DNA of 64,000 nt. Origin: an uncultured cyanobacterium. GTDB taxonomy: Bacteria > Cyanobacteriota > Cyanobacteriia > Cyanobacteriales > Cyanobacteriaceae. A model generated the notes under the pieces. It searched no databases and was not told where the DNA came from. It saw only the letters and a program-made list of their open reading frames with translations. The position numbers and the translations under genes were made by a program. This document shows, piece after piece, positions 34,997 through 50,301 of the stretch (positions are counted from its first letter, which is position 1; the number at the start of each line of letters is the position of its first letter). Location: assembly GCA_963749915.1 (NCBI GenBank), contig CAVVOP010000022.1, positions 128,001 through 192,000 on the forward strand, written 5' to 3'.

Positions 34997-35070
34997 CGGG
35001 GCGTAGCGCAGCTTGGTAGCGCACCACTTTGGGGTAGTGGGGGTCGTGGGTTCAAATCCCGCCGCTCCGA
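34997..35070 (+). tRNA. tRNA-Pro(GGG), the CAST homing target
   Basis: Cloverleaf CGGGGCG...CGCTCCGA; anticodon arm CCACT-TT-GGG-GT-AGTGG; T-loop GTTCAAATC. Confidence 0.97.
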
Positions 35071-35079
35071 TTTATGTTT

Positions 35080-35150
35080 TGTACATTCAATAATTAATTG
35101 TCGTTGTTCACACATTATTGTCGCTGTTTAACAAAATAATTTCGTTAAGT
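35080..35150 (+). mobile_element. CAST left end (tRNA-proximal)
   Basis: TGTACATTCAATAATTAATTGTCG-TTGTTCACACATTATTGTCG-CTGTTTAACAAAATAATTTCG: TGTACA terminus plus tandem TnsB sites. Confidence 0.9.
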
Positions 35151-35256
35151 AATTTTTTTGTTGAACTTAGCATGTTCTTTATATTACGTCACATAGAAAT
35201 TCTGCAATACCTTGTTTGTTCGCAGGATTTCATAACTGTGTTAAAAGAGGATACAA

Positions 35257-35293
35257 ACCCCAAAGTCGTGCGCCTTTCAATCTTACTCACACT
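35257..35293 (-). CRISPR. Delocalized homing crRNA: variant partial repeat plus 17-nt spacer against tRNA-Pro
   Basis: Minus strand AGTGTGAGTAAGATTGAAAG + GCGCACGACTTTGGGGT; 16/17 match to tRNA 35019-35035, which is preceded by a GTA PAM. Confidence 0.92.
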
Positions 35294-35400
35294 TTAAATC
35301 ATATCATTTTCTGAAGATAGATGTGAAATAAAATATGTCTATTCCCAATTTTCCTTTTTTCCACAAGCTACTTTTCTCGCTTTCAATACTCTATCCATAT

Positions 35401-35728
35401 CTATCAATCTACACAAAATACGAACAAGAATGTAAGAACACATACAGTTATTGTTTTATGCTTGAAGCATCCCCTCTCAATCTACAAAACACTAATTAGA
35501 GCATTTAAACCTTATTGGAGCAATTAGAAACAAGTATTCTGAACACTTTCAATCTACCAAACACTAATCAGAGTATTGAAACGAAAAGGTATCTGAATTT
35601 ATTTATCGAAGGGTCGCTCTTTCAATCTACCAAACACTAATCAGAGTATTGAAACCAAATAAAGATTTAGTTAAAAAAGCGGTAGAAAAAACTTTCAATC
35701 TACCAAACACTAATCAGAGTATTGAAAC
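35401..35728 (-). CRISPR. Type V-K CRISPR array: 3 perfect and 2 degenerate 37-bp repeats, 35-36 bp spacers
   Basis: Repeat (minus) GTTTCAATACTCTGATTAGTGTTTGGTAGATTGAAAG at 35692-35728, 35619-35655 and 35546-35582; degenerate copies at 35474-35510 and ~35401, keeping the 72-73 bp period. Confidence 0.95.
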
Positions 35729-35919
35729 TTTACACGCTCAAAGCAACTCACTGAAGGCTTCTCTAACTCAATTTTGACGAACCTATTAAAATTCGGGACA
35801 AAATCAACTTGATTGACCTAAGTTTTTTTAAGTAACACTAAAATAAGTGCCACTCTGTATGATTTTGGCGTTTTTGACGAACCTCCTAGGGAATTTAACC
35901 TCGCTATAGGTTGGTCAAA

Positions 35920-36250
35920 ATTAGTGTGAAGTAAGATTCCTTCGGTGAAGAAGGTGATTCAGTAACCATCTCTGTAGTCATCCACATCCTCATTAGAGGA
36001 CTAAGCTCAGAAATAACCTTATTCTTTGCTTTACTTCTTATTGCTGGGAGCGTACCTAACCGATAGAATATAGATAGCATTATCATTTTCTGTCAATATT
36101 TCCTTTCTCTGAGCAAGGTTCAGAGATCGCAGCCTCAGAAGTGGACAGTTACTAGGGTCAGAAAGAATAACTATTGCTTAATAGTCAAACTAACCCACTT
36201 TTTTCACAGTGCAGAGGTTTTGTCTAAACATGGACTGCGACGCTAACTCT
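35920..36250 (-). ncRNA. Cas12k tracrRNA (~320-330 nt)
   Basis: Minus-strand blocks recalled from V-K tracrRNAs: TAGCGTCGCAGTCCATG, GGGTTAGTTTGACT, CTTTCTGACCCTAGTAACTG, TAGGTACGCTCCCAGCAATAAG, TACTGAATCACC; 3' anti-repeat AATCTTACTTCACACTAAT. Confidence 0.88.
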
Positions 36251-36251
36251 T

Positions 36252-36281
36252 ATGTTAATAGTTATGTACTGATTTTGTCAA
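36252..36281 (-). promoter_or_regulatory. Putative tracrRNA promoter
   Basis: TTGACA-N18-TAACAT immediately after the cas12k stop. Confidence 0.65.
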
Positions 36282-36296
36282 GGTACTCGGAAAAAT

Positions 36297-38186
36297 TTAG
36301 GCAGATTTTTCCAAGCGACAATTATAACTATTGAGTGCTGTGGTTTTGGCTTTTTCTTGAGGTGTTCCCGATTTAGGTTGGCTGCCAAACTCGATTGCGA
36401 TTCCTTCTTGAGAAGCTAACTGACTAATATATTCGGTTAGTCGGCTATAACTCCACTGGTGTATGTTTTTGCGGTATTCTTTGGCATATTTTTTCTGTGC
36501 TTTCTTGTAACCCATGATTTTAGTTTCTGCTTTGGCTTGAACTTCGCTCAGGATACTTTCTTTGATGTTAGTTAACTTTGGTAAAACAATACTTTGTGCT
36601 TGATAAAATTTAGCCGTTTGTACGATCGCCCTAGCGATTAATCGATCGATGTATTCTCCAAGGTTAGACTCCCCTTTGTTGCTGAATTTGTCTTGTTTTT
36701 GGGGGTGATGTCTTTGCTTAGAAAGTTTGATTTTTTGTTGCCGTTGACGATTGAGAAGTGAATAGTTGTCGCCTAAAAGTTGCTTGATACTTCGATAGAC
36801 GATCGCATCTTGAGTTATTACATTGACAACAGCTACAGTAGCAGGTTTTTGTAATCCAAAACTGACTCCCAGAATAATATTTGGATTTCCCTGATAAACT
36901 TTTTTGTGTGGGCGTGGATAAGAGGTATTAATTCTAGCTAAACTAGATTCTTTTCGTTTTTGATCTGCTAACTGATTGGGAGTAAGTTCTGATTTTTCTT
37001 GATGTTTATCGATTTTTTCTTTTGTCTTTTGGCTTTTTTCTTGTGCTATTTGGTTTGTGCCTTCGGCAGTCCAAAAACGGGTATCAATGGAACATTGTAA
37101 ATATAGTTTGTGAACTTCCCAAGGATTTCCCTTTCCTTGTTCTTCACGCCATAATATTCTGGCAGAACGAAGAGTAAATAAAGCACTACTATATTTACTG
37201 GAATCTTGTTTATAAGTTTGTTGATCTTCCCAAAAACGTTGAAACCAATGAAGCTGACGACGATCGCATCTTAGTTCAAATTGATGTTTACTTAGACCAT
37301 TGAATTTGACTAATAAATGTCCTCGTTGATCTTGTATCCAAGTTAAATCGATATTAGTTTCATAGGCGATAGGATAGGGAATAACTGGAGATTTTTTCAA
37401 AAGACGACTTTGCCACTCAGATGCTTCTTCTTCTGTTTCGGGAACTTTGTCAGATGTGATCGTCAAGGTTTCTAACCATTTGTCTTGGGTTAAATCTCTG
37501 CCTTGGGGAAGTCTATTTTCCAGTTGTTGTTGATGTCTTTCGATTTCAATTTCCTTTTTTCTACGATATTGTTGGAATTGCTTTATGTCTTCAATTTCAT
37601 CGGGTATTTGACATTGATTTTTAAGTAGGTAGGCAATGGCACATCGATCAAGAATGTCTGTTCGTAACTCGTATTCATTCATAAAATGTTGGAACAAATC
37701 ATTGTCTTTTTTTTGTTTCTTCTTTTTTCCTTGTTTGTCTGACTTTAGGTTATTTTGAGCTTCTTTGAGTATTTTGTGGGCTTGATCGACAATTTTTTCA
37801 ATATTACTCCCTGATATTGCTTCTAACTCAGCATCACTTTTGAGAATATTAAGCCATCTCTGTTTACCTTCTATTTTTCTTTGTAGTCTAGCTTGAACGG
37901 CAAACCATGATTTGTATATGTAATGGGTAAGAGCGATCGCACTGGTAAAAAAACGTCCTGGTTGATTTTGATACTGGGGTAAATCCCTTAAAGGTTGGCA
38001 TATATCCTTAATTGGTTTTTGAGATATTTTTTTTGTCTTGAACCATTCTTCAAATTCTTCATGATGAGAGACTCTATAGAGTAATTCGTTAACAAGGGGG
38101 GTATTTTTTTCGCTCATCAGTTTCCAAAGATAACGCAGTGAGTCTGACGGAGCATATAAGCGACATTCAATAGTTTTCTGGCTCAT
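36297..38186 (-). CDS. cas12k: Type V-K effector Cas12k (nuclease-dead RuvC); likely start MSQKTIECRL
   Basis: TIECRL..LWKLM.EKNTPLVNEL, YIYKSW, RRQLHWFQRFWED, YSSALFTLRS, LGVSFGLQKPAT, SIVLPKL, HQWSYSRL; context with array and tns genes. Confidence 0.96.
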   Translation of the reverse strand: MSQKTIECRLYAPSDSLRYLWKLMSEKNTPLVNELLYRVSHHEEFEEWFKTKKISQKPIKDICQPLRDLPQYQNQPGRFFTSAIALTHYIYKSWFAVQARLQRKIEGKQRWLNILKSDAELEAISGSNIEKIVDQAHKILKEAQNNLKSDKQGKKKKQKKDNDLFQHFMNEYELRTDILDRCAIAYLLKNQCQIPDEIEDIKQFQQYRRKKEIEIERHQQQLENRLPQGRDLTQDKWLETLTITSDKVPETEEEASEWQSRLLKKSPVIPYPIAYETNIDLTWIQDQRGHLLVKFNGLSKHQFELRCDRRQLHWFQRFWEDQQTYKQDSSKYSSALFTLRSARILWREEQGKGNPWEVHKLYLQCSIDTRFWTAEGTNQIAQEKSQKTKEKIDKHQEKSELTPNQLADQKRKESSLARINTSYPRPHKKVYQGNPNIILGVSFGLQKPATVAVVNVITQDAIVYRSIKQLLGDNYSLLNRQRQQKIKLSKQRHHPQKQDKFSNKGESNLGEYIDRLIARAIVQTAKFYQAQSIVLPKLTNIKESILSEVQAKAETKIMGYKKAQKKYAKEYRKNIHQWSYSRLTEYISQLASQEGIAIEFGSQPKSGTPQEKAKTTALNSYNCRLEKSA

Positions 38187-38327
38187 AATTTTTATCCTCA
38201 ACAAGAGACTAAATCTAATATAGCATGACCAAAGATGTTAATTAGTGGCTAATAAGTGGCAATAACTAGAATCAGATCTTTTCGTTATAGGATCGATAAA
38301 GTATAAAGAAAAACTAATGAGAGAGTA

Positions 38328-38495
38328 ATGACAAAGAGAGTGTATTTAACACTAGCGGATAAGGTTTATGATGCGTTGGAAAGGTGGGCAAATGATCAGG
38401 GGCGCCCCGTTGCCAATTTAGCCGCCTATTTGGTGGAAAGGGCGATCGAAGATGCTGAAAATGAGGGGAAAATACCTCCCTTGACTAAAAAATAA
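38328..38495 (+). CDS. 55-aa ribbon-helix-helix (CopG/Arc-like) repressor, divergent from cas12k (absent from ORF track)
   Basis: MTKRVYLTLADKVYDALERWANDQGRPVANLAAYLVERAIEDAENEGKIPPLTKK*; occupies the usual CAST regulator position. Confidence 0.85.
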   Translation: MTKRVYLTLADKVYDALERWANDQGRPVANLAAYLVERAIEDAENEGKIPPLTKK

Positions 38496-38589: not shown

Positions 38590-40182
38590 ATGGCAAAAAA
38601 CAAAGAAAATAATAACAATACAACTGACAATAAAAGTTTAGAAAGTTGGATTTGGGATGCGGCTTGTAGCATTCGAGGGGTTCAGGAAGCGTCTAAGTAT
38701 AAAGATTTTATATTACCTTTAATTTTTACGAAACGTCTTTGTGATGTTTTTGATGATGAGTTAAATCGTATTGCTAAGAAGATTAAAACTCGTGCTAAAG
38801 CCTTTGAGTTTGTTGAAAATGATCATGAGTTAGTCAGATTTTATTTACCTCTGAAACCGAAAAATCCTGATGATGATGTTTGGAAAGTGATAAGAACTTT
38901 AAGCGATGCCAACACAGAAAAGAGCGATTCTTCTGTAAGCTACGGTGAAAGGGTGACTAATTATTTAAGAGATATTGCCAAAGAGAATCCATTATTAAAG
39001 GGAATTTTAGATAGAGTTGATTTTAATGCGACAACTCACGGCGAAAGGGATTTAGATGACGATCGCCTGTCAAATTTGATTGAGAAAATTTCTGAGAAAA
39101 GATTAGGGTTAAATGATGTTGAACCTGATATTATCGGACGTAGCTATGAGTATTTAATTCGCAAGTTTGCTGAAAGTGGTGGGCAGTCGGCAGGGGAGTT
39201 TTATACGCCGATGGAAGTGGGGATGATAATGGCGAAAATTATGCAACCTAAGCCAAGTATGGAAATTTATGATCCTTGTTGTGGTTCGGCAGGTTTATTA
39301 ATTAAGTGTCAATTGGTTTTACAGGAAGAACAGGGAGATAATCAATACGCACCATTGCAGTTATATGGACAGGAATATACTGCTAATACTTGGGCAATGG
39401 CGAATATGAATATGATTATTCATGATATGGAGGGAAAAATTGAAATAGGTGATTCTTTTAAAAATCCCAAGTTTAAGTATAAAGGGAAGTTGAGACAATT
39501 TGATCTAGTTGTGGCTAATCCGATGTGGAATCAAAACTGGTTCACTGAAAAGGATTATGATAACGATGAATGGGGGCGTTTTCCAAAGGGGGCAGGTTTC
39601 CCCGGTTCAAAAGCTGATTGGGGTTGGGTTCAACATATTAATGCTTCTTTGAAAGATGATGGTAAAGCGGCGATCGTTCTTGATACGGGGGCGGTTTCGA
39701 GGGGTTCTGGGAATGCTAACAGGGATAAGGAAAAGGATGTGAGAAAGTGGTTTATTGAACAAGATTTAATTGAAGGGGTGATTTATTTGCCTGAAAATCT
39801 TTTTTATAACACTTCTGCACCGGGTATCATTTTAATCTTAAATAAGGCTAAATCCGCAGAAAAAAAAGATAAGTTATTTTTTATTAATGCCAGTTTAGAG
39901 TTTGCTAAGGGCGATCCGAAAAACTATATTCCTGATGAGGGTATTAATCGCATTGCTGAGACTTTTTTAAGTTGGCAAGAAATCGATAAGTTTAGTTGTA
40001 TTGTTGATAAGGCTAAAATTGTTGAGAATGATTATAATATCTCTCCTTCTCGTTATATTCATGTAGCTGAGGCTGAAGAATTTAGACCAATTAGTGAGAT
40101 TTTGCTAGAGTTGGATGAGTTGGAGAAGGAAGCAGAAACAACAAATAAGAATTTAATGCAGGTTTTAAGTAAGTTTAGGTAA
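38590..40182 (+). CDS. hsdM: Type I R-M methyltransferase subunit (cargo)
   Basis: GEFYTP, YDPCCGSAGLL, ANPMW (variant of NPPF/W), ENLFYNT. Confidence 0.93.
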   Translation: MAKNKENNNNTTDNKSLESWIWDAACSIRGVQEASKYKDFILPLIFTKRLCDVFDDELNRIAKKIKTRAKAFEFVENDHELVRFYLPLKPKNPDDDVWKVIRTLSDANTEKSDSSVSYGERVTNYLRDIAKENPLLKGILDRVDFNATTHGERDLDDDRLSNLIEKISEKRLGLNDVEPDIIGRSYEYLIRKFAESGGQSAGEFYTPMEVGMIMAKIMQPKPSMEIYDPCCGSAGLLIKCQLVLQEEQGDNQYAPLQLYGQEYTANTWAMANMNMIIHDMEGKIEIGDSFKNPKFKYKGKLRQFDLVVANPMWNQNWFTEKDYDNDEWGRFPKGAGFPGSKADWGWVQHINASLKDDGKAAIVLDTGAVSRGSGNANRDKEKDVRKWFIEQDLIEGVIYLPENLFYNTSAPGIILILNKAKSAEKKDKLFFINASLEFAKGDPKNYIPDEGINRIAETFLSWQEIDKFSCIVDKAKIVENDYNISPSRYIHVAEAEEFRPISEILLELDELEKEAETTNKNLMQVLSKFR

Positions 40183-40222
40183 TTTTCATTAGGCAACAAA
40201 TAGACAATTAAAGAAAATTTAT

Positions 40223-41518
40223 ATGCTTTTATCTCCAATAAAAAATATCCCCAAAGACTGGAAAATAGTTGAACTACAGAATGCAGGTGAAGTTATTTAT
40301 GGAATTCAAGCATCTGTTGCTAATAACATTGAGCCAATCGGAACAAAAATATTAACTAACAAAAATATTACTCTTGATGGTGGTTTTGATTTAGAAAAAA
40401 TTAACTATTTTGAATTGAAAACAAAGCGACATAAAGAAACCATTTTAAAACAAGGTGATATTCTTTTTAATTGGCGTAGTGGTAGTAAAGATCATGTAGG
40501 AAAAACAGCTTATTTTAACTTAGATGGTCAATATACTCATTCTTCCTTTATTCTTAGAATACGTTGCAACACTAATACCATTTATGGTAAGTATTGTTAC
40601 TATTATTTGCTATGGTTGCATAAATCAAAGTATTTTCTAAAACTTCAAACTTATGCTATCAATGCAAAATTCAATAAGAGTGCAGTTAATTTATTACCAA
40701 TTATTCTTCCCCCAATTGAAGAACAAATAAAAATAGTCAATGTTTTAAGTTTAGTACAAAAAGCAATTAGTGAACAAGAAAAGGCGATCGCTTTAACAAC
40801 AGAATTAAAAAAGGCGTTAATGCAAAAACTATTTACCGAAGGGCTAAATAATGAACCTCAAAAAATGACTGAAATAGGTCTTATTCCTGAAAGTTGGGAG
40901 GTTAAAGAATTAAAATATTTTATTGAAATACCTCAATATGGTTTTACTGATAGTGCAAGTGATAAAGGAAATACCAAATTTTTAAGAATTACAGATATTA
41001 CAGAATTTGGAGTAAATTGGAATACAGTACCATTTTGCAATTGTCCAATTGAGAAAATCGATCAATATTTATTAAAAGACAATGACATTGTTTTTGCTCG
41101 AATTGGTGCAACAACTGGAAAAAGTTATATTATTAAAAATCCTCCTTTTTCGGTATTTGCCTCATATTTAATTAGAGTTAGAGCAATAAAAATAGATCCC
41201 GATTATTTATTTCAATTTTTTCAAACACAAATTTATTGGCAACAAATTAATGCTAGAAAAGACGACAGTTTGAAGAAAGGTGTCAACGGTTCTGTATTAA
41301 AAAATATTCTGATTCCAATTCCATTAGAAAAAGAGCAAAAAGAAATTGCAAAAATATTTCAAACTTTTGAGCAAGAAACTAATTTATTAATGATAAAAAA
41401 ATCACAATTACAAGAGTTATTTAAAACTTTATTACATCAATTAATGACTGCTCAAATAAGAGTAGATGAATTAGATTTAAGTGTATTAGAGACTCAAATA
41501 GAGGAGGTTAGAAATTAA
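40223..41518 (+). CDS. hsdS: Type I R-M specificity subunit (cargo)
   Basis: Two TRDs separated by LPPIEEQ...LKKALMQKLFT..IGLIPESWEV. Confidence 0.92.
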   Translation: MLLSPIKNIPKDWKIVELQNAGEVIYGIQASVANNIEPIGTKILTNKNITLDGGFDLEKINYFELKTKRHKETILKQGDILFNWRSGSKDHVGKTAYFNLDGQYTHSSFILRIRCNTNTIYGKYCYYYLLWLHKSKYFLKLQTYAINAKFNKSAVNLLPIILPPIEEQIKIVNVLSLVQKAISEQEKAIALTTELKKALMQKLFTEGLNNEPQKMTEIGLIPESWEVKELKYFIEIPQYGFTDSASDKGNTKFLRITDITEFGVNWNTVPFCNCPIEKIDQYLLKDNDIVFARIGATTGKSYIIKNPPFSVFASYLIRVRAIKIDPDYLFQFFQTQIYWQQINARKDDSLKKGVNGSVLKNILIPIPLEKEQKEIAKIFQTFEQETNLLMIKKSQLQELFKTLLHQLMTAQIRVDELDLSVLETQIEEVRN

Positions 41519-43462
41519 ATGCTAACCTTTGATGAAATTTGGGAAATGTTAACTACCCAAGATGAAAGTACAGAAATAGAAGCGAAAAAAGCCTCTGATA
41601 TGGGTAAAAGCATTTTGGAAACTATTAGTGCTTTTTCCAATGAATCAGGTTTAGGTGGCGGTTATTTATTATTAGGAATAAAATCAGCAGAAGATAGTCA
41701 AAATAATATTTATGAGATTGAAGGTTTAGCAGAACCTGATAAAATTCAAAGAGATTTAGCTTGTCAATGTCGAGAAGTTTTTAACATTCCCATTCGCCCT
41801 CAAATAGAAACTATTACAAAAGAAGGGAAAACGGTTATTGTCGCTTTTATTCCCGAAGCTCAACCCTCAGAGAAACCAGTTTATATTACTAAAAGAGGAC
41901 TACCCAAAGGAGCATTTAGACGTATAGGCTCAACGGATCAAAAATGCACAGAACGAGATTTAGAATTATTCTATCAAGAAAGAAGTAATCAAACTTTTGA
42001 CCAAACTCCCGTTAAAGATGCAAGTTTAGATGATTTTGAGTCACAGGCTATTGATGCTTATCGCCGTATTAGAAAACAAGTAAACCCCAATGCTAGTGAA
42101 CTTAACTATAGCGATCGTGATTTATTAGATTCTTTATATGCCATAACCAAACATCCCAATCAAAAAGGAGAATATTGCCCTACTGTAGCAGGATTAATTT
42201 TATTTGGTAAAGAAATAGCCTTAAGAAAGCATTTTCCTTTACAGCGTGTTGATTATATTGTAGTTGAAGGAAAGGAATGGGTAGAGAATCCAGATAAACG
42301 TTATCAAAGTGTGATTGAAATTCGTCAGCCTTTATTATTGGCTATTCCTCGACTAACAGCTTTAGTTTTAAACGATTTACCTAAAGCCTTTAATCTTCCT
42401 GAAGATCAGATAAATCGGCAAGATATTCCTTTAATTCCTAGTGCGGTTATTAGAGAAGCTATTGTTAACGCTGTTATGCACAGGGATTATCGTATTCGTA
42501 GCCCAATTCAGATTATTCGATATTCAGATCGTTTAGAACTTCGTAACGCTGGTTATTCTTTAAAATCAATAGACGAATTAGATCAACCAAGTTCAAAAAC
42601 TCGTAATGAAAAAATAGCTGAAACTCTCCATGAGTTAAATATAGCCGAAACTAAAGGATTTGGTATTAGAACCATGTTAGAAAATATGCGACAAGCAAAT
42701 CTAACTATTCCTTTATTTGAATCAAGTAGAGAAAAAGACTCTTTTTGTCTTACTTTATTTACTCATCATTTTTTAGAGCAAGAAGATATTGACTGGTTAA
42801 CTCAATTTAAAGATCTTAACTTAAGTAAAGAAGAAACAAATGCTTTAGTTGTAATTAAAAAAACAGGTAAAATAAATAATTCAATTTATCGTTATGTTAA
42901 TGATGTTGATATAAATAAAGCAAGTAAGCAATTAATAAAATTAAGGGATTTAGGTTTAATTAATCAAAATGGTAAAAGCATAGCCACTTATTACACCATC
43001 AAGCCTGAATTTTTATCGGGACAGTTAGAAAAACCTTATCAAGATAGTAGTACAGATAATCAAGACACCTTATCAGGACAGTCAGAAAAACCTTATCAGG
43101 AAGACAATACAGGCAATCAAGACACTTTATCAGGACAGTTAGAAAAACCTTATCAAGACAGTAGTACAAGTCAACAGGGACAGTTAACTCTTGATTTATT
43201 TCCGCCTCTAAGCAAAAAAAAACTTGAAGAAAGATTAAATAAAATTGGTAAACGAACCGAACCAGAGGAAATGAAAAGCCTAATATTGGAATTGTGCAGA
43301 ATAAAGCCTTATTCATCTAGTGAATTAGAAAAATTGTTAAAACGAAAGCGAAAATATTTATTAGAACAATATCTTAAGCCTTTAATTGATGACAAGTTAC
43401 TAGAATACACTAACCCCAATAGTCCTAACGATCCTCATCAAACTTATCGCACAAAACAATAA
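41519..43462 (+). CDS. AlbA_2/HATPase/HTH ('RecG-like') ATP-binding protein with an internal 19-aa repeat (cargo)
   Basis: ESTEIEAK, ETISAFSN..GG.LLLGI, REAIVNAVMHRDY, RNEKIA, C-terminal PNDPHQTY. Confidence 0.85.
   Translation: MLTFDEIWEMLTTQDESTEIEAKKASDMGKSILETISAFSNESGLGGGYLLLGIKSAEDSQNNIYEIEGLAEPDKIQRDLACQCREVFNIPIRPQIETITKEGKTVIVAFIPEAQPSEKPVYITKRGLPKGAFRRIGSTDQKCTERDLELFYQERSNQTFDQTPVKDASLDDFESQAIDAYRRIRKQVNPNASELNYSDRDLLDSLYAITKHPNQKGEYCPTVAGLILFGKEIALRKHFPLQRVDYIVVEGKEWVENPDKRYQSVIEIRQPLLLAIPRLTALVLNDLPKAFNLPEDQINRQDIPLIPSAVIREAIVNAVMHRDYRIRSPIQIIRYSDRLELRNAGYSLKSIDELDQPSSKTRNEKIAETLHELNIAETKGFGIRTMLENMRQANLTIPLFESSREKDSFCLTLFTHHFLEQEDIDWLTQFKDLNLSKEETNALVVIKKTGKINNSIYRYVNDVDINKASKQLIKLRDLGLINQNGKSIATYYTIKPEFLSGQLEKPYQDSSTDNQDTLSGQSEKPYQEDNTGNQDTLSGQLEKPYQDSSTSQQGQLTLDLFPPLSKKKLEERLNKIGKRTEPEEMKSLILELCRIKPYSSSELEKLLKRKRKYLLEQYLKPLIDDKLLEYTNPNSPNDPHQTYRTKQ
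43013..43183 (+). repeat. 57-bp in-frame tandem repeat, about 3 copies
   Basis: Units start at 43013, 43070 and 43127 (LSGQLEKPYQDSSTDNQDT). Confidence 0.9.
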
Positions 43463-43485
43463 ATTATCTTTTTCTTCTCTCAAAT

Positions 43486-46428
43486 ATGCCTAAACCAACT
43501 GAACATAAAACCGTCCAAGATCGCATCTTAACCTATGCCCAAGAAATAGGTTGGACATTTGTACCTCGTAAAGAAGCCGAAGCTAAAAGGGGTTTTAACG
43601 CCCCTTTACCCACGAGTTTGGGAAAACAAAAGGGCGTTGAAATTCAACACAAAGCCCAACAAGGATCATTATATTTTGATGATACTTTGTACCAAAAAGT
43701 CAAAGAATTTAATCCTCATTACAACGAAACCAAAGGGGATTTAATTAAACGCCTCAATAACTTATCCCTCGACATTTACGGTAATCGAGATTTTCTGAAC
43801 CTTCTACAAAATCAAGGTAAATACTTTTATCAAGCTGAGAATAGAGAACTAGATTTAATTTTAGTGGATTACGATCGCTCTGAAAATAATATTTATGAAG
43901 TTACAGAAGAATATTATACCCATAACGGGAAATACGGCACAAGGGAAGATGTGGTATTTTTAATTAATGGTATTTCAGTATTGGTCATTGAATGTAAAAA
44001 CGCCAATAAGAATGAGGCGATCGCATTAGGAATTGATCAAATTAGACGTTATCACCGAGAAACCCCAGAGTTATTTATTCCCCAAATGTTATTTACAGCT
44101 ACAGAGGCGATCGGTTTTGCCTATGGCGTAACTTGGAATATCGTCAGACGCAATATTTTTAACTGGAAAGATGAAGAAATTGGGCAACTAGAAAACAAAA
44201 TTAAGACTTTTTGCCATCCCCAAATAATCTTAAAATTTCTGAAAAATTATATTATCTTTGCGGAAAAAGACGAAACTTTACAAAAATATATTCTAAAACA
44301 ACATCAAACCTTAGCTATCGAACAAGTAATTAACCGTTGTCACGATGAAACTAAATTTAGGGGATTAGTGTGGCACACTCAGGGAAGCGGAAAAACCTTC
44401 ACCATGATTAAAACTGCCGAAATGCTCTTTAAAGCCCCAGAAAGCGAAAAACCCACTATTATTCTAATGATCGATCGCAACGAATTAGAAGATCAAATGT
44501 TACGCAACCTGAATAACTTAGGGGTTAACAATATTCGCCATGCCGATCGCATAAAAACCCTTGTGGAATTACTCGAAAACGATTATCGAGGTATTATTAT
44601 CACCATGATTCATAAATTCCGAGAAATGCCTCCTAACATCAACACAAGAAAAAATATTTATATTTTGATAGATGAGGCACACCGCACCACAGGAGGAGAT
44701 TTAGGCACATTTTTAATGGCAGGTTTGCCCAATAGCACAATTATTGGCTTTACTGGTACACCCATTGACAAAACCAATCAAGGAAAAGGTACTTTCAAGG
44801 TTTTTGGGGTTGATGATGAAAAAGGTTATTTACATAAATACTCGATCGCTGAAAGTATTGAAGATGGTACAACTCTACCCCTTTACTATAACATCGCTCC
44901 TAATCAATTATTAGTCCCTGCGGAAATAATGGAGCAAGAATTTCTTGATTTAGTAGAAACAGAAGGGATAAACGATATAAGTGAACTCAATAAAATTTTA
45001 GATCGAGCAGTTAATTTAAAGAATTTTCTCAAAGCAGATCAAAGAATTGATCAAGTAGCAAAATATGTTGCTGAACATTATACAACCAATGTCGAACCGT
45101 TAGGATATAAAGCCTTTTTAGTAGCCGTCGATCGCCCTGCTTGTGCTAAATATAAAGAAGCCTTAGATCGTTATTTACCCCCTGAATATTCGGCGGTAGT
45201 CTATACAGGTAATAACAACGATAGTGAAGAACTAAAGGCTTACCATCTCGATGATAAAACAGAGAAGCAAATCCGCAAAAACTTCGCTCGTTTTGGAGAA
45301 TATCCGAAAATTTTAATAGTAACGGAAAAACTATTAACAGGTTATGACGCACCATTACTATATGCCATGTATCTGGATAAACCAATGCGAGATCATACCC
45401 TCTTACAAGCGATCGCCCGTGTTAATCGCCCTTATGAGAATGAAACAGAGGAGATGCTTAAACCTCATGGCTTTGTCTTAGATTTTGTGGGTATTTTTGA
45501 TAAATTGGAAAAAGCCTTAGCCTTTGATAGTGAAGAAGTTAACGCTATTGTTAAAGATTTACAATTACTTAAAAATTTATTCAAAATCAAAATTGAGCAA
45601 TTAGTTCCCACTTACTTGCCCCTAATTAAACATAACTTTAACGATCAAGATGTCGATAATTTAATTGAATTTTTCAGGGAAAAAGAACAACGCAAAGGAT
45701 TTATTAAAGGCTATAAAGAGTTAGAAATGCTTTATGAAGTTATATCACCAGATGCTTTTTTACGCCCTTATATTGACGATTATACTAGCCTCTGTGGCAT
45801 TTATCAGGTGGTTCGTAATGCTTATACTCGCAGAATTTATCTCGATCGAGAAGTGAAACGCAAAACTGATGAAATAGTACAACAAAATATTGGGACAACG
45901 GCGATCGCCTCTATTAATGAATTTATCGAAATTAATGCAGAGACAATTGAAACCATTAAAAACAAAAAAAATGGTAACACAACCAAAGTAATTAACTTGG
46001 TAAAAAGTATTGAAAAAATAGCAGAAGAAAATAAAGATGATCCCTTTTTAATCGCTATGGCACAAAGAGCAAAGGCGATCGAAGAAAGATTTGAAACAAG
46101 ACAAGTTGATACTCAAGAAACTTTAGATTTATTATTTCAAGAAATCAAAAATAATGAACAAAGGAAAAAGGAACAATCCGCCCAAGGCTTTGATAATTTA
46201 AGCTATTTTGTTTATAAAATCTTAAAAGATGCTGGAATAGAAAGCCCAGAAGAAGTAAGTCATCAGATAAAACAAGCATTTGTTGATTATCCTAACTGGA
46301 AGAAAAGTGAAAGAGAATTAAGAGAATTACGAAAAGAAGTTACTTTTTCTATCTATGAAAAAATAGATGATTTAGATCAAGTTACTGATATTGTTAATCA
46401 GTTATTCAACCTCTTAAATCAAAATTAA
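43486..46428 (+). CDS. hsdR: Type I R-M restriction subunit (cargo)
   Basis: D.VFLING...VIECK, HTQGSGKT, DEAHR, FTGTP, LLTGYDAP, QAIARVNR. Confidence 0.94.
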   Translation: MPKPTEHKTVQDRILTYAQEIGWTFVPRKEAEAKRGFNAPLPTSLGKQKGVEIQHKAQQGSLYFDDTLYQKVKEFNPHYNETKGDLIKRLNNLSLDIYGNRDFLNLLQNQGKYFYQAENRELDLILVDYDRSENNIYEVTEEYYTHNGKYGTREDVVFLINGISVLVIECKNANKNEAIALGIDQIRRYHRETPELFIPQMLFTATEAIGFAYGVTWNIVRRNIFNWKDEEIGQLENKIKTFCHPQIILKFLKNYIIFAEKDETLQKYILKQHQTLAIEQVINRCHDETKFRGLVWHTQGSGKTFTMIKTAEMLFKAPESEKPTIILMIDRNELEDQMLRNLNNLGVNNIRHADRIKTLVELLENDYRGIIITMIHKFREMPPNINTRKNIYILIDEAHRTTGGDLGTFLMAGLPNSTIIGFTGTPIDKTNQGKGTFKVFGVDDEKGYLHKYSIAESIEDGTTLPLYYNIAPNQLLVPAEIMEQEFLDLVETEGINDISELNKILDRAVNLKNFLKADQRIDQVAKYVAEHYTTNVEPLGYKAFLVAVDRPACAKYKEALDRYLPPEYSAVVYTGNNNDSEELKAYHLDDKTEKQIRKNFARFGEYPKILIVTEKLLTGYDAPLLYAMYLDKPMRDHTLLQAIARVNRPYENETEEMLKPHGFVLDFVGIFDKLEKALAFDSEEVNAIVKDLQLLKNLFKIKIEQLVPTYLPLIKHNFNDQDVDNLIEFFREKEQRKGFIKGYKELEMLYEVISPDAFLRPYIDDYTSLCGIYQVVRNAYTRRIYLDREVKRKTDEIVQQNIGTTAIASINEFIEINAETIETIKNKKNGNTTKVINLVKSIEKIAEENKDDPFLIAMAQRAKAIEERFETRQVDTQETLDLLFQEIKNNEQRKKEQSAQGFDNLSYFVYKILKDAGIESPEEVSHQIKQAFVDYPNWKKSERELRELRKEVTFSIYEKIDDLDQVTDIVNQLFNLLNQN

Positions 46429-46430
46429 TT

Positions 46431-46766
46431 ATGCTTTCAATCGATAAACAAAAAACGTGGAAAAATACTGAAGACTTGAAAAATACAGTTTGGACATGGA
46501 GCGATCGCATTAATGTGCAAGTCAAAGAGATTCAACTACGTCAAATGAAAAATAAATGGGCTTCTATCTCTACGACAGGTAGATTAACTTTAAATAAAGA
46601 ATTGATGGATTTACCTCAAGAATTAGGAGAATTTGTAATTGTACATGAATTAATTCATCTACTCGTACCTAATCACAGCAAATTGTTTAAATGTTATATG
46701 TCAGTCTATTTACCAGATTGGCAAGATCGAGAAAAACGCTTAAAAAAGTTATCTTCTCAAAAATAA
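46431..46766 (+). CDS. M48/YgjP-like metallopeptidase (cargo)
   Basis: MKNKWAS, VHELIHL..PNH; typical partner downstream of hsdR. Confidence 0.85.
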   Translation: MLSIDKQKTWKNTEDLKNTVWTWSDRINVQVKEIQLRQMKNKWASISTTGRLTLNKELMDLPQELGEFVIVHELIHLLVPNHSKLFKCYMSVYLPDWQDREKRLKKLSSQK

Positions 46767-46788: not shown

Positions 46789-47295
46789 TTATTTTTGCTT
46801 TTTACTCATCTTCGTAAATGATAAATGACAGCGATCGCATCTACCATCTTTCCATAGAGAAGGAACAGAAAAAGAAGTTCCACAGTTAGGACATTTAGAA
46901 AGTAATTTCACCTTATGAAGATCGCATCCTCTTTTCTTCTTATCTTGCCATTGTAAACGATGATAGGGAGCTTCTTGATAACACATTCCACACAGCATAA
47001 TCGGTTTAATTTGCGTCACCATACCCTGATAAGGAAACATTTCCCGAAGGCGATCGACATCCAACATCACGACTGTTGCTAATTTTTCTAATTCTTGTGG
47101 CGTAGGAAAGGGAGAAAAATAAAACTTTTCCCATCGAGCCAAAATAGCCCCCAATCCTGCCACTTCACCCAATCCACTTGGTGCGGAGAAACGATTTCCT
47201 TTCGCACGGCGAAATCTGCCCAAGAAATGACTAATACTTTCCCCTTCAAATGGCTCAACTTTGGTTAACCACAACTCACTTTCTCTTTCTTTCAT
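46789..47295 (-). CDS. tniQ: TniQ, short V-K type
   Basis: PFEGESISHFLGRFRR, RWEKF...P, CxxC/CxxH zinc motifs. Confidence 0.93.
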   Translation of the reverse strand: MKERESELWLTKVEPFEGESISHFLGRFRRAKGNRFSAPSGLGEVAGLGAILARWEKFYFSPFPTPQELEKLATVVMLDVDRLREMFPYQGMVTQIKPIMLCGMCYQEAPYHRLQWQDKKKRGCDLHKVKLLSKCPNCGTSFSVPSLWKDGRCDRCHLSFTKMSKKQK

Positions 47296-49904: not shown

Positions 49905-50137
49905 GAAACGACAACTAAAATATTAAATTATTCTGCAATGGTCAATTGATCTGATCAAAAAATAAGCGACATTTAAAACTTTAAAAACAATAATAAACGA
50001 CATTTAACTGTTGAAATAAGTTGTCCGATTCCACAAGAACATAAAAAGCACTCTAATCCATATATAATGGCATTTATAGAGATTTTTAATGGCGACAATA
50101 ATGTGTTAAACAGCGACACTTAATTATTGAATGTATA
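49905..50137 (-). mobile_element. CAST right end with multiple TnsB sites; terminus TATACA instead of TGTACA
   Basis: Reverse complement TATACATTCAATAATTAAGTGTCGCTGTTTAACACATTATTGTCG mirrors the left end; further CGACA sites near 49910, 49967 and 49998. Confidence 0.88.
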
Positions 50138-50301
50138 CTTGTTTTAAAAGGGTTTTAGAGATTCTACATATTTCCAGAACTCTTTTCTATTGTCAATAAG
50201 CCGGGCGAAAATAGTTCATTTTAGATAGTTTTAGTTCTATAATTGGTAGATAAAATGAAAGAATCATAAATTTTTGGAGATGTCTATTGCAGAAGGTGTG
50301 C

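Follow-up and report, generated by a model that had tools for sequence, protein, structure and literature searches.

CRISPR-associated transposons (CAST) that belong to type V-K and have the V1 type, with ShCAST and AcCAST/AnCAST as described representatives (bioRxiv 2021.02.06.429022; PMC9938897), carry cas12k, a tracrRNA, an array with 37-nt repeats and a truncated repeat with a 17-nt spacer, which are followed in this order by the left transposon end and a tRNA gene. The spacer of this homing guide matches a target next to a GTN PAM, with a published PAM-to-left-end range of 46-82 nt; tnsB, tnsC and tniQ occupy the other end, and a small divergent regulator is also present. The homing repeat has been described as approximately 12-13 nt long. 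In published models, anti-repeat 2 of the tracrRNA is matched to the array repeat and a single base stays without a partner, which the duplex descriptions of both sources do not explain (Ziemann 2025, PMC12416283; Mitrofanov 2022). According to section 1.2 of Mitrofanov 2022, where no reason is given, it is position 6 that mostly does not correspond to the tracrRNA in the array duplex, and this position is most likely the variable n of the V1 repeat consensus AACCCnCCC (Ziemann 2025, PMC12416283). In the ShCAST structure the anti-repeat 2 duplex does not touch Cas12k, and a role in recognition has been suggested.

The choice between homing and spreading in V-K transposons was stated to be unclear (Hsieh and Peters, bioRxiv 2021.02.06.429022). 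The I-F3 CAST (Petassi 2020, as cited in PMC11406308) resemble V-K systems in that a special repeat, different from that of the array and proposed to favour homing, flanks the attachment-site spacer. I-F3 systems read this atypical repeat through a protein complex, TniQ-Cascade, whereas the V-K discriminator would be RNA-RNA pairing with the tracrRNA. The nearest prior statement is a remark in the Rybarski preprint, which ascribes to the tracrRNA 'homology to the atypical repeat'. We found no paper stating the better homing fit, the co-variation or the fused guides reported below; a part of it may be shown in the principal paper on such guides (Saito 2021) or in the figures and supplements that accompany Hsieh and Peters, which lay beyond the scope of this comparison.

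Here, we analysed a V-K locus in a 64,000-nt stretch of DNA from an uncultured cyanobacterium (hereafter, the window) and compared the pairing of its tracrRNA with homing and array repeats to that in related V1 loci.

Materials and methods

Neighbourhoods of cas12k were collected by genome searches, with matches in 21/51, 87/401 and 39/401 genomes of overlapping samples; genome matches to the front part of Cas12k alone were mostly left out. Metagenome loci came from the best 80 of 167 matches. The search of genome contigs with a single protein gave one useful locus, and two partial cas12k matches from a plasmid search were left out of the set.

A tracrRNA profile seeded on V1 motifs was found in 192 of 205 loci (163 after de-duplication), and 159 of these reached the tracrRNA 3' end. 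The parts were located independently of each other: anti-repeat 2 via the terminal stem-loop, the homing guide via its PAM and the match of its spacer, and the array repeat by taking the most frequent 37-mer. Fifty-three of the 159 loci were excluded, namely 38 with no homing guide in the sequence covered, six with an unanchored anti-repeat, five lacking an array repeat, three with a fused guide alone and one with a weak match. The final set thus comprised 95 loci with a single tracrRNA, the window included, and 11 loci (about three lineages) with two tracrRNAs; all are V1 systems, and V2 lies outside the set.

The phylogenetic tree was built on tracrRNA cores devoid of the anti-repeat. Energies were compared with a margin of 0.3 kcal/mol, using models that include neither the anti-repeat 1 triplex nor protein. 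Energies were also computed with 20-32 nt upstream of the homing repeat, and these were given no weight because the A-rich flanks pair with the U-rich tracrRNA tail.

Results and discussion

The element in the window

The locus is a V1-type V-K CAST at tRNA-Pro(GGG), and apart from the duplex described below it is an ordinary V-K element (Table 1). It shares with the described V1 systems the order of parts given above, the divergent regulator and the GTN PAM, with 61 bp between the PAM end and the left end. The homing protospacer was the only GTN-flanked match with up to three mismatches in a search of the own genome, where the array spacers gave no meaningful match and no second tracrRNA copy was found. 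As is typical for V1, P2 of the tracrRNA contains anti-repeat 1, and its 3' end, behind the 5-bp stem-loop, contains anti-repeat 2. The array repeat ends with TTGAAAG, as for type V-K, and differs from the homing repeat in 4 of 20 positions.

Table 1. Coordinates of features of the V-K element and its attachment site in the window
Feature	Position	Strand	Remarks
tRNA-Pro(GGG)	34997..35070	+	Host attachment gene
PAM and homing protospacer	35016..35035	+	GTA PAM 35016-35018; 17-nt protospacer 35019-35035, 1 mismatch vs spacer
Transposon left end	35080..35135		Starts TGTACA; repeated TnsB-site-like motifs; inverted match to right end; inner limit approximate
Homing (anchor) spacer, 17 nt	35257..35273	-	
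Truncated homing repeat, 20 nt	35274..35293	-	16/20 in-register identity to array repeat; 35279-35293 pairs with anti-repeat 2
Candidate sigma-70 promoter	35298..35327	-	Just upstream of homing repeat; 10/12 matches, extended -10; weak
Two degenerate trailer-end repeats	35401..35510	-	35401-35437 and 35474-35510
CRISPR array	35546..35728	-	Three identical 37-nt repeats (35692-35728, 35619-35655, 35546-35582); spacers 35-36 nt
Leader between tracrRNA and array	35729..35919	-	Position as in published loci
Anti-repeat 2 of tracrRNA	35920..35938	-	Core 35930-35938; distal extension 35920-35929
Conserved 5-bp terminal stem-loop (S8/P8)	35939..35954	-	Directly precedes anti-repeat 2
tracrRNA, V1 architecture	35920..36245	-	Approximately 325 nt with internal insert
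Anti-repeat 1	36161..36165	-	Pairs with last 5 nt of the repeat, same in homing and array repeats; role by homology
tracrRNA promoter-like site	36252..36281	-	10/12 matches; conserved place after cas12k
cas12k	36297..38204	-	NF038191, 864 bits vs cut-off 150
Ribbon-helix-helix (Arc-like) regulator	38328..38495	+	PF07878, E 8e-18; divergent from cas12k
Cargo, type I restriction-modification genes	38590..46766	+	hsdM-like, hsdS-like, AlbA_2/HATPase protein, hsdR, YgjP-like
tniQ	46789..47295	-	PF06527, E 5e-4, weak Pfam match below cut-off; size and place fit
tnsC, 286 aa	47276..48136	-	PF05621 and PF13401 (TniB/AAA_22)
tnsB, 584 aa	48160..49914	-	PF09299 (Mu-transposase C-terminal)
Transposon right end	50092..50137		Outermost bases TATACA, not TGTACA

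The genes tnsB, tnsC and tniQ are three adjacent ORFs; tnsA is absent, with no ORF of at least 100 aa between tnsB and the right end. Both Tn7-like ends are present. As to the 5-bp target duplication of type V-K, the 5-mer at the altered right end (50130-50144) that corresponds to the left flank lies 2 bp out of place; the element may no longer be mobile. Within the cargo, a 647-aa AlbA_2 / HATPase_c_4 / Fic-like_C protein (41519-43462) is encoded between hsdS and hsdR. It should also be added that 35770-35922 contains three copies of a 13-nt motif, two of them in the leader and the third, in inverted orientation, just past the anti-repeat; possibly, this is the motif that has been connected with type I-D adaptation in leaders.

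The window shares an RHH_5-type regulator beside cas12k with V-K_V2 systems (Ziemann 2025, PMC12416283), from which it differs in that the V2 tracrRNA has no 3' anti-repeat, the V2 repeat ends with GGTGGTGGGTTGAAAG, the PAM distance is 54 as compared to 61, and TnsC has approximately 306 as compared to 286 aa. The position of anti-repeat 2, the repeat end, the PAM distance and the TnsC length of the window all fit V1 and not V2. According to the same source, RHH_5 defines Arc_2, the regulator type used exclusively by V2; the regulator in this V1-type system was assigned by its Pfam RHH_5 match, and it may be of the Arc_1 or the Arc_2 type.

Two related loci, L001 (6933-6962) and L207 (1172-1208), carry a homing repeat near-identical to that of the window (guide at 35257-35293) with different spacers. 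The three spacers match three different tRNA-Pro genes, each beside its own element, which points to retargeting by spacer change. L207, in genome G296, is a decayed sister element whose tracrRNA is 97% identical and cut at its 5' end; cas12k is missing alongside and the array is reduced to remnants, with the homing guide and anti-repeat intact. G296 has other cas12k genes.

Anti-repeat 2 pairs better with the homing repeat than with the array repeat

The first-pass annotation of this DNA had proposed that the tracrRNA 3' end fits the homing guide better than the array repeats. The anti-repeat segment at 35923-35938 and its homing counterpart at 35279-35293 were indeed found there on the minus strand, and they form 15 bp with one bulge on the tracrRNA side, the first nine positions being all Watson-Crick pairs. 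The interrupted array duplex that it described was also reproduced by cofolding, which gave 5 bp, a bulge, 3 bp, a 2x2 loop and 8 bp plus a G-U. The RNAduplex comparison that it had called for gave -19.4 kcal/mol with the homing repeat and -15.3 to -15.7 with the array repeat. The same annotation called the homing pairs spacer-proximal; the pairing stands, and direct adjacency to the spacer does not, as five repeat bases (35274-35278) intervene, which pair with anti-repeat 1 at 36161-36165.

Over the 9 nt retained in mature guides, the homing repeat forms nine Watson-Crick pairs (-8.0 kcal/mol) and the array repeat five pairs, a bulge and three pairs (-3.8 kcal/mol). In the long precursor the array repeat forms more pairs (17 vs 15) and yet binds more weakly (-14.1 vs -18.2); the gap is proportionally larger in the mature 9 nt. 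For guides of 14+17 nt, net binding was -8.7 with homing, and the three guides of the array gave -6.0, -5.6 and +0.1; for the precursors, net values were -14.2 for homing and -8.1 to -11.4 for the array. When both strands of the 64-kb window were scanned in 24-nt steps, the homing repeat was the best partner of the anti-repeat, its own antisense strand aside (-18.9, with -15.1 for the next site and -13.4 for the array repeats), and none of 5000 shuffled homing 15-mers reached -17.9 (mean -6.0, best -16.3).

This fit would be irrelevant if the mature tracrRNA ended before the segment. For its first 8-9 nt that is unlikely, since in the ShCAST structure the duplex is formed by the last 8 nt of the tracrRNA; the distal part of the window anti-repeat 2 may be trimmed in the mature RNA. 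The paired parts in the window are long: the homing repeat of 20 nt and the anti-repeat pairing of 15-17 pairs exceed both the published repeat length and the medians of the set (12 nt and 10 pairs, respectively).

Better pairing with the homing repeat is common among V1 loci

The same pattern, which the first-pass annotation suggested to look for in other V-K loci, was present in most of the V1 loci examined. Over nine positions, the homing repeat formed more Watson-Crick pairs in 71 of the 95 loci and the array repeat in five, with 19 ties (means 8.11 vs 6.77); among the 65 loci with at least three repeats the corresponding counts were 50, 2 and 13. The first eight pairs were perfect for the homing repeat in 54 loci and for the array repeat in five. 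By energy over 9 nt, homing was better in 65 loci and the array in 15, with a median of -3.3 kcal/mol, and over 12 nt the array was better in 22/95. Homing and array repeats differed at 219 sites altogether, where the tracrRNA pairs with the homing base in 166 cases, with the array base in 39 and with neither in 14. Three loci (L123, L169 and L178) represent reverse cases, in which the array pairs at positions 4-8 and the homing repeat is mismatched at position 7.

Position 6 of the homing repeat is paired to the tracrRNA in 88/95 loci, and that of the array repeat, by Watson-Crick pairing, in 26/95. An imperfect array duplex may be read as a signal for processing: its bulge or mismatch would mark the site of cleavage that leaves a repeat end of 12-14 nt, and the homing guide, being already short, would need no such mark and could pair fully. 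The duplex does coincide with the processed repeat end, the nuclease of which is described as unidentified (Mitrofanov 2022), and the imperfect fit persists in loci with two tracrRNAs. However, the arrays paired at position 6 speak against it, and so does the mismatch itself, which is no commoner than in non-cognate pairs; we therefore hold this explanation to be very unlikely.

Kinship and co-variation

Kinship does not explain the homing advantage. After clustering at 80% tracrRNA-core identity, 18 of 20 clusters favoured homing and none the array by pair count, with two ties. The energy difference was weaker over 12 nt, with clusters divided 16 to 4 for homing at 80%, and 9 to 4 at 75% (p 0.27).

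The homing repeat formed 8.11 of nine pairs with its own tracrRNA, as compared to 7.26 with those of near relatives and 6.06 with non-cognate ones; for the array repeat the respective values were 6.77, 7.06 and 6.20. Across 47 path-disjoint pairs of loci, 41 anti-repeat changes were compensated by the homing repeat in 23 cases, by the array repeat in five and by neither in 18. Scored per pair, compensation favoured homing 12 times and the array never, with 12 ties (sign p 0.0005). The change at position 6 between the window and L001 was compensated by neither repeat. The first-pass suggestion of co-evolution is thus borne out for the homing repeat by these compensations and the cognate fit, and it extends beyond the single window in which it was made. 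By computation, anti-repeat and homing repeat are almost perfectly complementary and change in concert, and the variation of the array repeat is largely independent. Altogether, anti-repeat 2 of the tracrRNA very probably co-evolves with the homing repeat and not with the array repeat in most V1 loci examined, and selection appears to be strict on the homing pair and loose on the array pair.

The same pattern could be a product of history, if arrays are quickly replaced or homogenised, or if homing units are copied from the tracrRNA end, so that tracrRNA and homing repeat remain as an older matched pair with little effect on loading. Array repeats do vary widely between loci, the fused units described below tie homing repeats physically to tracrRNA ends, the homing advantage rises with distance from the array (Spearman -0.32, not corrected for kinship), and heterologous repeats are functional (Hu 2024). 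The compensations along independent paths and the cognate advantage over near relatives, however, would need continuing selection or repeated copying, and the homing repeat stayed fixed when the spacer changed among the three tRNA-Pro genes of the window, L001 and L207. We consider a purely historical origin to be quite unlikely, and the continuing selection on tracrRNA and homing guide to be the preferable reading.

The array repeat: self-folding and imperfect fit

Array repeats fold on themselves, with a median of -14.6 kcal/mol and 11% of the pairing positions unpaired, as compared to -2.5 kcal/mol for homing 37-mers; the array fold was the more stable one in 94/95 loci. In a simple two-strand model, which includes neither triplex nor protein, net anti-repeat binding to the 37-mers had a median of -0.3 for the array and -11.2 for homing, and homing was better in all 95 loci. 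The array repeat of the window forms a less stable hairpin (-6.2 kcal/mol), and the anti-repeat there has a distal 8-9-bp array match.

Hsieh and Peters (bioRxiv 2021.02.06.429022) proposed that V-K arrays borrow the type I-D adaptation machinery, which would shape their repeats. The other clear CRISPR repeat of the own genome (36 nt, three arrays) is unlike the V-K repeat, with anti-repeat 2 pairing of -1.5 vs -3.8, and thus lends no support to a constraint from adaptation.

A selected ranking, in which the array mismatch itself is kept as a throttle and tracrRNA affinity sets the choice of pathway, would also account for the imperfect array duplex. In its favour, 62/95 loci have an array mismatch at position 6, formed by different letter pairs, and in 58 of these 62 the homing repeat is paired; the imperfect array fit remains in the 11 loci whose first tracrRNA serves the array alone; and type I-F3 is known to have categorised homing guides that are hyperactive (PMC11406308). 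Nevertheless, the array matched its own tracrRNA at position 6 with a frequency of 0.27 and those of unrelated loci with 0.31, which gives no clear indication of active avoidance; in 20 loci all three partners match at this position; and the array self-hairpin accounts for the independence of the array with no need for a throttle. Selection to hold array guides back or to weaken array pairing is therefore not supported, and a kept mismatch appears to be an unlikely explanation. We also rejected a model of compromise, in which the array would fit poorly since the tracrRNA has to serve homing: the array duplex reached 0.60 of a perfect duplex in the 11 loci with two tracrRNAs vs 0.66 (p 0.73).

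Fused tracrRNA-homing units

Among the 117 loci in which a homing guide was found, 15 have the homing spacer joined to the tracrRNA end by a short linker, which in most cases contains a hairpin and has as its last bases the last five of the repeat. Eleven of them (L016, L019, L025, L027, L052, L054, L060, L067, L093, L117 and L128) carry the fusion on a second tracrRNA copy past the array, with no second cas12k between, and four (L011, L030, L063 and L202) on the sole copy in the sequence covered. The fused spacers match adjacent sites with GTN PAMs, one of them with four mismatches. Anti-repeat 1 was present on both copies in the seven fused dual loci that were readable by pattern, the remaining four being unreadable on both copies. 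On the tree the fused state required four changes, at least three of them forced by well-supported branches, in a count that includes the looser case L068. By their structure, these units seem to be naturally occurring single guides that serve homing, and they are present in three lineages or more. No tracrRNA-homing fusion occurs in the window, and in L142, which has a second tracrRNA, no homing spacer was found in the sequence covered.

The cas12k matches of L011 and L024, both in genome G077, score identically; one cas12k is followed by the fused homing guide and tRNA alone, and the other by a normal tracrRNA. We infer that the first of these two forms may arise by array loss through recombination between two tracrRNA copies.

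The fused units resemble the long tracrRNA of Streptococcus pyogenes Cas9 (bioRxiv 2020.05.21.102756) in combining a repeat mimic and a targeting sequence in one chain. The long tracrRNA autoregulates the cas operon, whereas in the V-K fusions the targeting part is a 17-nt tRNA spacer used for homing, in most cases attached to a second copy of the tracrRNA.

Promoters and transcripts

The conservation of a tracrRNA promoter after cas12k has been published, and the promoter-like site in the window occupies that place. The candidate promoter of the homing guide (Table 1) is at chance level, with five such sites vs 4.7 expected, and a homing-guide promoter as a family rule was rejected, as no TAnnnT peak at a fixed distance was seen in 92 loci (top 0.10 vs a 95th percentile of shuffled maxima of 0.098). 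The homing unit, for which no conserved promoter was found, may be read through from the array.

RNA data consisted of assembled contigs of relatives, with a word share of up to 0.16, from which strand, ends and levels are not readable. In three studies, all or most of the anti-repeat is spanned by contigs of close relatives; two samples of one of these studies have contigs that extend from approximately 36230 across the leader and reach the first repeat. A joint tracrRNA-array precursor was reported for V-K systems (Ziemann 2025, PMC12416283) and for Anabaena, and the contigs are a weak hint at such a transcript, because they give neither strand nor ends and were compared with no DNA run. No contig covered the array past the first repeat, the homing repeat or nearly all of cas12k, an absence which carries no weight. 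In two samples of one study, contigs covered the left end (35035-35271) and stopped inside the homing spacer, at 35269 and 35271.

A possible homing-first adaptor

The best explanation in our view, and a reasonably probable one, is that selection for tight anti-repeat 2 pairing acts on tracrRNA and homing guide jointly and hardly on the array. The homing guide would be a minimal, unstructured unit approximately 500 nt downstream, which the element would need to settle in each new host chromosome, and it may be captured in trans by base pairing at the anti-repeat 2 duplex, an RNA-RNA recognition that would proceed with no Cas12k contact, as the ShCAST structure suggests. The array would be transcribed in one piece with the tracrRNA and may manage on about five good pairs, its repeat keeping the palindromic 37-nt form probably for spacer acquisition via host Cas1-Cas2. 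Per molecule, the predicted binding of the tracrRNA is stronger to the homing guide than to crRNAs of the array or the host, so that homing would be favoured if tracrRNA-Cas12k is limiting. The advantage would thus stem from securing homing and not from handicapping the array, and some lineages seem to have gone further by fusing the homing spacer to its own tracrRNA copy.

Preferential loading of the homing guide is a likely consequence of the predicted pairing difference, and that this advantage matters in cells seems somewhat more probable than the opposite. Guide abundance could outweigh affinity. In ShCAST in E. coli, a type I-D repeat was as good as the native one, and on-target insertion was highest with single guides (Hu 2024); the former suggests that duplex fit may matter little when there is no competition.

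For tool design, it is relevant that engineered single guides have the tracrRNA folded with the crRNA repeat. The folded repeat is presumably that of the array, and the homing repeat would usually be the better partner; related loci may offer ready-made natural single guides.

More broadly, and only tentatively, V-K guides may be ranked by RNA pairing alone, the tracrRNA being a homing-first adaptor through which homing guides outcompete array and host crRNAs for limited Cas12k, with a dedicated single guide in at least three lineages. A duplex tuned to the homing guide would be one testable answer to the question of pathway choice and to the unexplained unpaired base. If true, the homing-first adaptor would explain why natural insertions are found nearly exclusively at tRNA sites, and better homing pairing may make the safe tRNA site the default target of these elements.
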